Below are positions 1 to 1,842 of a DNA stretch of 1,842 bases, in pieces; within the stretch, counting starts at the first letter, position 1; each line of letters begins with the position of its first letter. Source of the DNA: Escherichia coli (GTDB lineage Bacteria > Pseudomonadota > Gammaproteobacteria > Enterobacterales > Enterobacteriaceae). The notes under the pieces were generated by a model. It did no database searches and had not been told where the DNA came from. It was given only the letters and a program-made list of their open reading frames with translations. The stretch lies in the NCBI RefSeq assembly GCF_044324875.1, contig NZ_CP172193.1; one strand, 5' to 3'. The translations under genes and the position numbers were made by a program.

Positions 1-113
1 ATACGAAACGTTATTTGCATGTGTATACGCAAACATGTTTGCGTGTGTTGTTTCGTACTGTACGATATAAATTTCGTAAGGTACGAAAGATTGTTGCAGG
101 TAAGGATGCAAGT
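1..113 (+). promoter_or_regulatory. Palindrome-dense leader / operator-like region upstream of ORF1 (possible autoregulatory operator or iteron-like Rep binding sites)
   Basis: Seen directly: 18-bp perfect palindrome acgcaaacatgtttgcgt at 27-44; 13-bp palindrome tcgtac-t-gtacga at 53-65; inverted repeat tttcgta-agg-tacgaaa at 72-88. The half-site TACGAAA / TTTCGTA recurs at 2-8, 51-57, 72-78 and 82-88. A TATAAA-like element lies at 66-71. Function is inferred from position immediately 5' of the ORF1 start. Confidence 0.5.
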
Positions 114-1735: not shown

Positions 1736-1842
1736 AAATGCTCGATAAACACGTTAAACCTTGTGCAACAAAAAAGTGCTTTGATAGATCTTTAGAGCAA
1801 AAATCAACATTTCGATTAATATCAATGACTTATGACACCATC

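Follow-up and report, generated by a model that had tools for sequence, protein, structure and literature searches.

What does a dense cluster of palindromes do at the head of a small Escherichia coli plasmid, upstream of its replication gene? The window analysed here, the whole stretch of 1,842 bp, is a complete small circular E. coli plasmid. NZ_CP070127.1, an E. coli plasmid record of 1,843 bp, covers 100% of the window at 99% identity, and the 1842/1 junction is continuous in this independent record (row L001). MOB-suite assigns the replicon type Col(MG828) to NZ_CP070127.1, pMG828-1 (NC_008486), and pKL1 (NC_002145). By the typing of the 99%-identical NZ_CP070127.1, the window is classed as a Col(MG828)-type plasmid of the pKL1 family. 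NZ_CP069986.1 (L005, 2,544 bp, filed as 'linear') looks chimeric or concatenated, made of the window plasmid and pKL1, and was left out of the junction analysis. In it, a pKL1-type repA is fused to a plasmid of the window's type, so that it is either a cointegrate or the result of wrongly assembling two co-resident plasmids of the Col(MG828) type.

Rep homologues were found by tblastn in 575 PLSDB plasmid records, 40 of which belong to the window's subgroup (at least 87% identity) while the rest fall below 60%. Subgroup plasmids are present in 30 of 5,426 complete E. coli genomes, and about 2,500 enterobacterial plasmid records match parts of the window. An 1,822-bp subgroup member, NZ_CP090002.1 (H26/H36), is filed under Staphylococcus aureus, probably through contamination or mislabelling. 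The repeats of the pMG828-1 subgroup were not described in any paper found; these papers use Col(MG828) only as a typing label.

The original prediction placed three symmetric elements upstream of ORF1, and all three are present. The 18-bp sequence at 27–44, ACGCAAACATGTTTGCGT, is identical to its own reverse complement, the element at 53–65 is the 6-1-6 inverted repeat TCGTAC-T-GTACGA, and that at 72–88 is the 7-3-7 inverted repeat TTTCGTA-AGG-TACGAAA. The heptamer TACGAAA/TTTCGTA occurs four times in both orientations, as claimed, at 2 and 82 on the plus strand and at 51 and 72 on the minus strand. Beyond these four copies in 1–88, it is absent from the 1,842 bases. The repeat named in the heading of the prediction stands as a fourfold heptamer but not as an 8-mer, as GTACGAAA occurs just twice (81 forward, 51 reverse). 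It had also been suggested that the array may extend further upstream of position 1. Because the plasmid is circular, that DNA is 1741–1842 of the same window, and it contains no heptamer copies, so the extension is not borne out.

The density of these elements had been judged to lie beyond chance, which was confirmed with 20,000 dinucleotide-preserving shuffles of 1–113. All three features together were found in 0 of 20,000 shuffles. Taken singly, an arm of at least 9 has a probability of 0.0037, at least three inverted-repeat centres with arms of at least 6 a probability of 0.00025, and a 7-mer present four times on both strands a probability of 0.0042.

Two tandem repeats underlie these symmetries. 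Positions 1–24 and 25–48 form a 24-bp tandem repeat, missed in the original prediction, with 18 of 24 positions identical (P = 0.002, 3,000 shuffles). Positions 50–70 and 71–91 form a 21-bp tandem repeat with 15 of 21 identical, and each copy holds TTTCGTA-N3-TACGAWA. The array is therefore better described as two 24-bp tandem units (1–24, 25–48) followed by two 21-bp units (50–91). Neither unit is detected by Tandem Repeats Finder, the copies being only 71–75% identical. An Rfam scan of the whole window identified no known RNA element, with one sub-threshold chance match far from the array. Coordinates of the array, its flanks, and the adjacent genes are given in Table 1.

Table 1. Features in and around the repeat array (window coordinates; sites and functions named as candidates are predictions).
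Feature	Position	Strand	Description
AT-rich stretch	1768..1842	.	71% AT; directly upstream of the array; candidate DNA-unwinding region
IHF-consensus box	1820..1832	+	TATCAATGACTTA, a perfect match to the consensus WATCAANNNNTTR; within the 71% AT stretch
Unit A1	1..24	+	ATACGAAACGTTATTTGCATGTGT; degenerate first copy of the 24-bp unit; half-sites ACGAAA (3-8) and TTTGCAT (14-20)
Unit A2	25..48	+	ATACGCAAACATGTTTGCGTGTGT; contains the perfect 18-bp palindrome 27-44
Dyad B1	51..67	.	TTTCGTA-CTG-TACGATA; overlaps the spacer and the -10 candidate
Dyad B2	72..88	.	TTTCGTA-AGG-TACGAAA; 21 bp after B1 (two helical turns)
Rep promoter candidate, weak	39..66	+	-35 TTGCGT (39-44), 16-nt spacer, -10 TACGAT (61-66)
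Alternative promoter candidate, weak, equal score	45..73	+	GTGTTG (45-50), 17-nt spacer, TAAATT (68-73)
AAGGA ribosome-binding site	103..107	+	6 nt before the ATG; read from sequence
ORF1 (rep gene), 174 aa	114..638	+	Winged-HTH protein, pKL1 RepA homologue; RepL in GenBank
ORF2, 72 aa	657-875		Follows rep directly; GGAGG ribosome-binding site

The four heptamers are not equivalent. Since 1–24 and 25–48 are a tandem repeat, the copy at 2–8 is the left arm of the degenerate 24-bp unit A1. In a Haemophilus parahaemolyticus plasmid with two tandem dyad units, it is the first to which unit A1 can be aligned. Counting ACGAAA, ACGCAAA, and TTTGCRT as variants of one element, as read from the sequence, the array holds eight half-sites with centres near 5.5, 17, 30, 41, 53.5, 64.5, 74.5, and 85.5. 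The gaps between them are 10–13 bp, with a mean of 11.4. Half-site orientation mostly alternates along the array, and both relative orientations occur. With both orientations present at intervals of about 11 bp, a picture of one dimer per palindrome may be too narrow.

The array is under strong conservation, above that of the rep gene. Positions 1–88 are 98–99% identical in subgroup relatives whose rep gene is 89–91% identical (Fisher p 0.005–0.01). Identity is 88% in the leader (89–113), 73–81% in the flank (1741–1835; array versus flank, p < 1e-4), and 47–48% in the ORF2 region. The few array substitutions seen in relatives are G43A, A83G, and C58A. G43A and A83G strike half-sites and break the perfect symmetry. 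C58A changes the 6-1-6 repeat to 5-3-5 and retains the 7-3-7 register that this dyad shares with B2, and it therefore supports TTTCGTA-N3-TACGAWA as the real repeat unit.

By BLASTP, ORF1 is a homologue of pKL1 RepA, with 42% identity across 156 aa (E 3e-41), and its ATG at 114 is the annotated start in relatives. An alignment of nine Rep sequences has 52 invariant columns. Several HTH families match ORF1 in Pfam; the match to RepL (PF05732) spans the winged-HTH core and is weak and partial (E 2.1e-4, 21 bits, model positions 49–136 of 164). PF05732 is found at E ≤ 0.001 in only three of the nine Rep family members. The Pfam search of ORF1 gave no match to Rep_3, and the NCBIfam search gave no match. 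An AlphaFold model of ORF1 has pLDDT values of 80–94 over residues about 50–120 and shows a helix-turn-helix followed by a beta-hairpin wing. The nearest PDB structures to this model by Foldseek are dimeric winged-helix DNA binders (ArsR/SmtB, MarR, TubR), all weak matches at E > 0.04, with none at E ≤ 0.001. A family-profile search of solved-structure sequences returned marginal HTH matches only (E > 0.2). The single histidine of ORF1 is H17; the protein therefore lacks an HUH rolling-circle nuclease motif.

The IHF box upstream of the array is the sole match to the consensus in the plasmid, where 0.14 are expected. At least one match is carried by 28 of 200 shuffles, so the box alone is not significant. 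DnaA boxes in the plasmid are at chance level, with 4 found and 4.06 expected. Both promoter candidates score 6.6 bits in a position-weight scan, and a stricter consensus scan found no sigma-70 promoter in the array. Measured from the ATG, the top-scoring promoter in six of seven other Rep groups has a -35 between -59 and -84 and a -10 that ends between -31 and -56. At this family-typical distance, the window's best candidates fall inside the array. With either candidate, the promoter and the start region would be covered by dyads B1 and B2 together with the palindrome's right arm.

The 260–320 bp upstream of rep were compared in nine other Rep groups, ten with the window. The nine are represented by pKL1, seven enterobacterial plasmids, Histophilus somni p9L, and the H. 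parahaemolyticus plasmid. A common order is found in all ten: an IHF-like box, two tandem dyad units of 24–26 bp, promoter-proximal short inverted repeats, and rep. Often, pKL1 being one example, an imperfect first tandem dyad is followed by a perfect second one, and the short inverted repeats near the promoter use each group's own half-site. A perfect IHF consensus lies in an equivalent place upstream of the dyads in five of the ten groups (the window, L010, L012, L013, and L015), in the opposite orientation to the window's in the other four. An IHF-like box with about one mismatch was read by eye in pKL1, L011, and L014. AACGTT lies between the two tandem dyad units in pKL1 (L003), L010, L013, and L014, and inside unit A1 (6–11) in the window, a hexamer kept although the repeats around it are otherwise unrelated.

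The sequence of the repeats differs from group to group. The most repeated upstream hexamer is GTCGCA in pKL1, GTTGCA in L014, TGACAT in L010, TAGGAA in L011, GAGCTA in L012, GAGACA in L013, GGACAC in L015, ACGAAC in p9L, ACGAAA in the H. parahaemolyticus plasmid, and TACGAA in the window, and each is scarcely found elsewhere in its plasmid. Dyad symmetry is thus kept while the sequence changes, the signature expected of sites that co-evolve with a symmetric binder of specific sequence. In the window's Rep clade, all three plasmids have the recognition-helix motif R-(T/S)-(I/V)-Q-x-W and an ACGAA half-site core. Their arrays align base for base, and TACGAA at 82–87 (dyad B2) is invariant. Similarly, the helices of pKL1 (SRSTIIRW) and L014 (NRSTIIRW) are near-identical, and their half-sites (GTCGCA and GTTGCA) resemble each other.

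The closest Reps outside the subgroup are those of two Pasteurellaceae plasmids, p9L (NC_004345, 58%) and the 1,295-bp H. parahaemolyticus plasmid (NZ_CP069511, 54%). Both have arrays alignable to that of the window, with the ACGAA core and tandem dyad units that start ATAC and end GTGT. The corresponding inverted repeat of p9L, GTTCG-TATAAT-ACGAAC, has a perfect -10 at its centre. They differ from the window in their half-sites (CACGAAA and ACGAAC versus TACGAAA and ACGCAAA), in half-site spacing (8 bp in the H. parahaemolyticus plasmid versus 4–5 bp in the window), and in having neither ORF2 nor the ColE1-like region.

The best-studied comparison is pKL1 (E. coli KL4, 1,549 bp). Burian et al. 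(1999, J Mol Biol; 2003, Biochemistry) reportedly found that its replication requires RepA, which acts as a repressor of its own promoter and assembles into hexamers when more concentrated. The two plasmids have homologous Reps, the same Col(MG828) type, and a near-identical GC-rich backbone. Both carry an IHF-type box, an imperfect and then a perfect dyad 24–25 bp apart, smaller promoter inverted repeats, and rep, in that order. However, the repeats themselves are unrelated (GTCGCATCC in pKL1 versus ACG(C)AAA in the window), and the recognition helices differ (SRSTIIRW versus SLRTIQYW). The window also differs in its AT-rich rep module, nearest to Pasteurellaceae, its inverted IHF box, and the extra ORF2. 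A passage in a published account (PMC3832669), which cites Burian et al. 2003, places the pKL1 oriV upstream of rep and lists among its parts a perfect inverted repeat of 16 bp, an IHF box, and several sites for Rep.

From these comparisons, the array is most probably a combined element, an ORF1-bound origin of replication and the autoregulatory operator of rep. This agrees in essence with the original prediction of operator or iteron DNA bound by ORF1 that may also be its replication origin. The IHF box and the AT-rich stretch, preceding the two tandem 24-bp dyad units (1–48), would form the origin. Rep bound to the dyad units, with bending by IHF, would melt the AT-rich DNA next to them and bring in replication proteins of the host. 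The -35, spacer, -10, and start region would be covered by the two TTTCGTA-N3-TACGAWA dyads (51–88) and the palindrome's right arm, so that rising Rep would shut off its own transcription and set the copy number. The A-type (ACGCAAA) and B-type (ACGAAA) half-sites differ by one inserted base, so that their reading by one protein is an assumption. The array is most likely an expected, ordinary part of the known pKL1/Col(MG828) plasmid family.

The proposed arrangement resembles that of iteron theta replicons such as pSC101, R6K, F, and RK2. In these, initiator sites are clustered by an AT-rich region and an IHF site, and inverted copies at the rep promoter give autorepression. Iteron replicons have at least three direct iterons of 17–22 bp, DnaA boxes, and a two-winged-helix Rep_3 protein. 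The window follows the same logic of clustered sites with inverted copies at the promoter, but it has two-copy units only (24 bp ×2, 21 bp ×2), each of them dyad-symmetric, and its Rep is a single small winged-HTH protein. A classical iteron (Rep_3) replicon is ruled against by the two-copy units, the lack of a Rep_3 match, and the chance-level DnaA boxes. The RepL family (PF05732; pSN2-type staphylococcal plasmids and phage P1 RepL) is a second comparison. ORF1 shares with it the GenBank label and a match over the winged-HTH core that is marginal and partial (E 2e-4).

In phage P1, whose RepL is the name-giver of the Pfam family, the origin oriL lies inside the repL gene. A RepL annotation therefore does not guarantee an upstream origin. 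The array could be an operator only, at which ORF1 represses its own promoter, with replication starting elsewhere, for example inside rep as in P1 or within 900–1740. Such a reading would suit an array that overlaps the promoter candidates, a protein named RepL by both Pfam and PGAP, the lack of a DnaA box above chance, and an AT-rich flank that is poorly conserved. We regard it as unlikely. The RepL match is weak, and the IHF box and distal tandem dyads are kept family-wide, beyond what a promoter needs. The Pasteurellaceae relatives are just 1.3 kb long and have little besides rep and the array region. In pKL1, according to the passage cited above (PMC3832669), the oriV and its Rep-binding sites lie upstream of the gene.

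The palindromes may instead work as nucleic-acid hairpins, in an intrinsic terminator, a leader RNA structure, or a rolling-circle double- or single-strand origin. A terminator scan does flag 23–48, and 1–113 as a single strand has an unusually stable fold (z = -4.3), but good folding is a trivial consequence of palindromes. Terminator-like matches in the window are at chance (2 found, 2.1 expected). The stem has 3 G-C pairs in 11 and a poor T-run, and no upstream gene needs termination; an intrinsic terminator at 23–48 was rejected on these grounds. A rolling-circle (HUH) double-strand origin was rejected as well, H17 being the sole histidine of a small protein with a winged-HTH fold. The lone half-sites (2–8, 14–20), the two orientations, and the spacing of about 11 bp fit protein sites and not stems. 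Hairpin function is accordingly given little credence.

A host regulator may bind the array in place of ORF1. Its 18-bp palindrome is built from two ideal PurR half-sites, ACGCAAAC and GTTTGCGT, identical to those in E. coli PurR sites such as ACGCACACGTTTGCGT, TCGCAAACGTTTGCTT, and ACGAAACCGTTTGCGT, which are 16 bp with a central CG (PMC3159470). In the palindrome, two extra bases (AT) split the halves and give 18 bp with a central CATG. A PurR operator was rejected because the half-sites match these published sites but the length and centre do not. Binding by a host regulator instead of ORF1 is very improbable: other family members have unrelated dyads at the same place, and the plasmids of Pasteurellaceae from which the ACGAA core is inherited space it differently. 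Unit A1 (3–20; ACGAAACGTT..., ACGAAAC...) also resembles natural PurR sites (PMC3159470), probably by coincidence. That AT-rich sequence gave rise to the repeats by chance is hardly credible, for AT bias alone (65% AT) would have to account for a combination absent from every shuffle and for an array this highly conserved.

Two bolder readings of the array have, together, only a slim chance of being correct. In the milder one, ACGAAA and ACGCAAA may be read by different oligomeric forms of Rep, which, if true, would separate initiation from repression. In the other, a host PurR or another LacI-family protein may bind the palindrome; if so, the origin and operator would be coupled to the purine supply of the host, or PurR would be titrated by a plasmid of high copy number.

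Beyond the array, the plasmid is a mosaic. The rep module, from about 1741 through the junction to 900, is AT-rich (27–45% GC), and its nearest relatives by Rep are in Pasteurellaceae. The block at 900–1740 is GC-rich (up to 65% GC), nearly identical in pKL1, and common to pKL1 and ColE1-type enterobacterial plasmids. Searches of ORF2 against Pfam, NCBIfam, PHROGs, and PADLOC gave no match. In pMG828-1-type relatives, its place is taken by an unrelated ORF of 95 aa, and the position of ORF2 appears to be a variable cargo slot.

The GC-rich block contains two candidate transfer origins. An inverted repeat joins 1484–1508 and 1711–1735 (25 nt, 92% complementary), placing an inverted copy of the end of GCCAGTATACACTCCGCTATCGCTACGTGACTGGGTCAGGGCTGCGCCCCGACACCCC 200 bp upstream. 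GCCAGTATACACTCCGCTATCGCTACGTGACTGGGTCAGGGCTGCGCCCCGACACCCC (~1660–1740) resembles the bom (oriT) region of ColE1/pBR322 and would be a second orphan oriT; MOB-suite labels the near-identical plasmid 'mobilizable'. The other lies at 920–957, where a second perfect 18-bp palindrome, TCAAATGTTAACATTTGA (920–937), is found 12 bp upstream of the octamer TATCCTGC (950–957). This octamer equals the nick sequence of RP4 and conforms to the MOBP consensus for nicking, (C/T)ATCCTG(C/T) (PMC3772185). CTATCCTGCATT is also present in pKL1 and both Pasteurellaceae plasmids. The segment looks like an orphan MOBP-type oriT on a plasmid without a relaxase.

No concept of plasmid biology is changed by these observations. 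They provide a testable origin and operator map for the pMG828-1 subgroup of Col(MG828), tiny cryptic plasmids that frequently turn up when resistance-surveillance isolates are typed. Across the family, Rep recognition helices paired with their half-sites make up a natural series of specificities, from which incompatibility could be predicted or orthogonal minimal replicons built.
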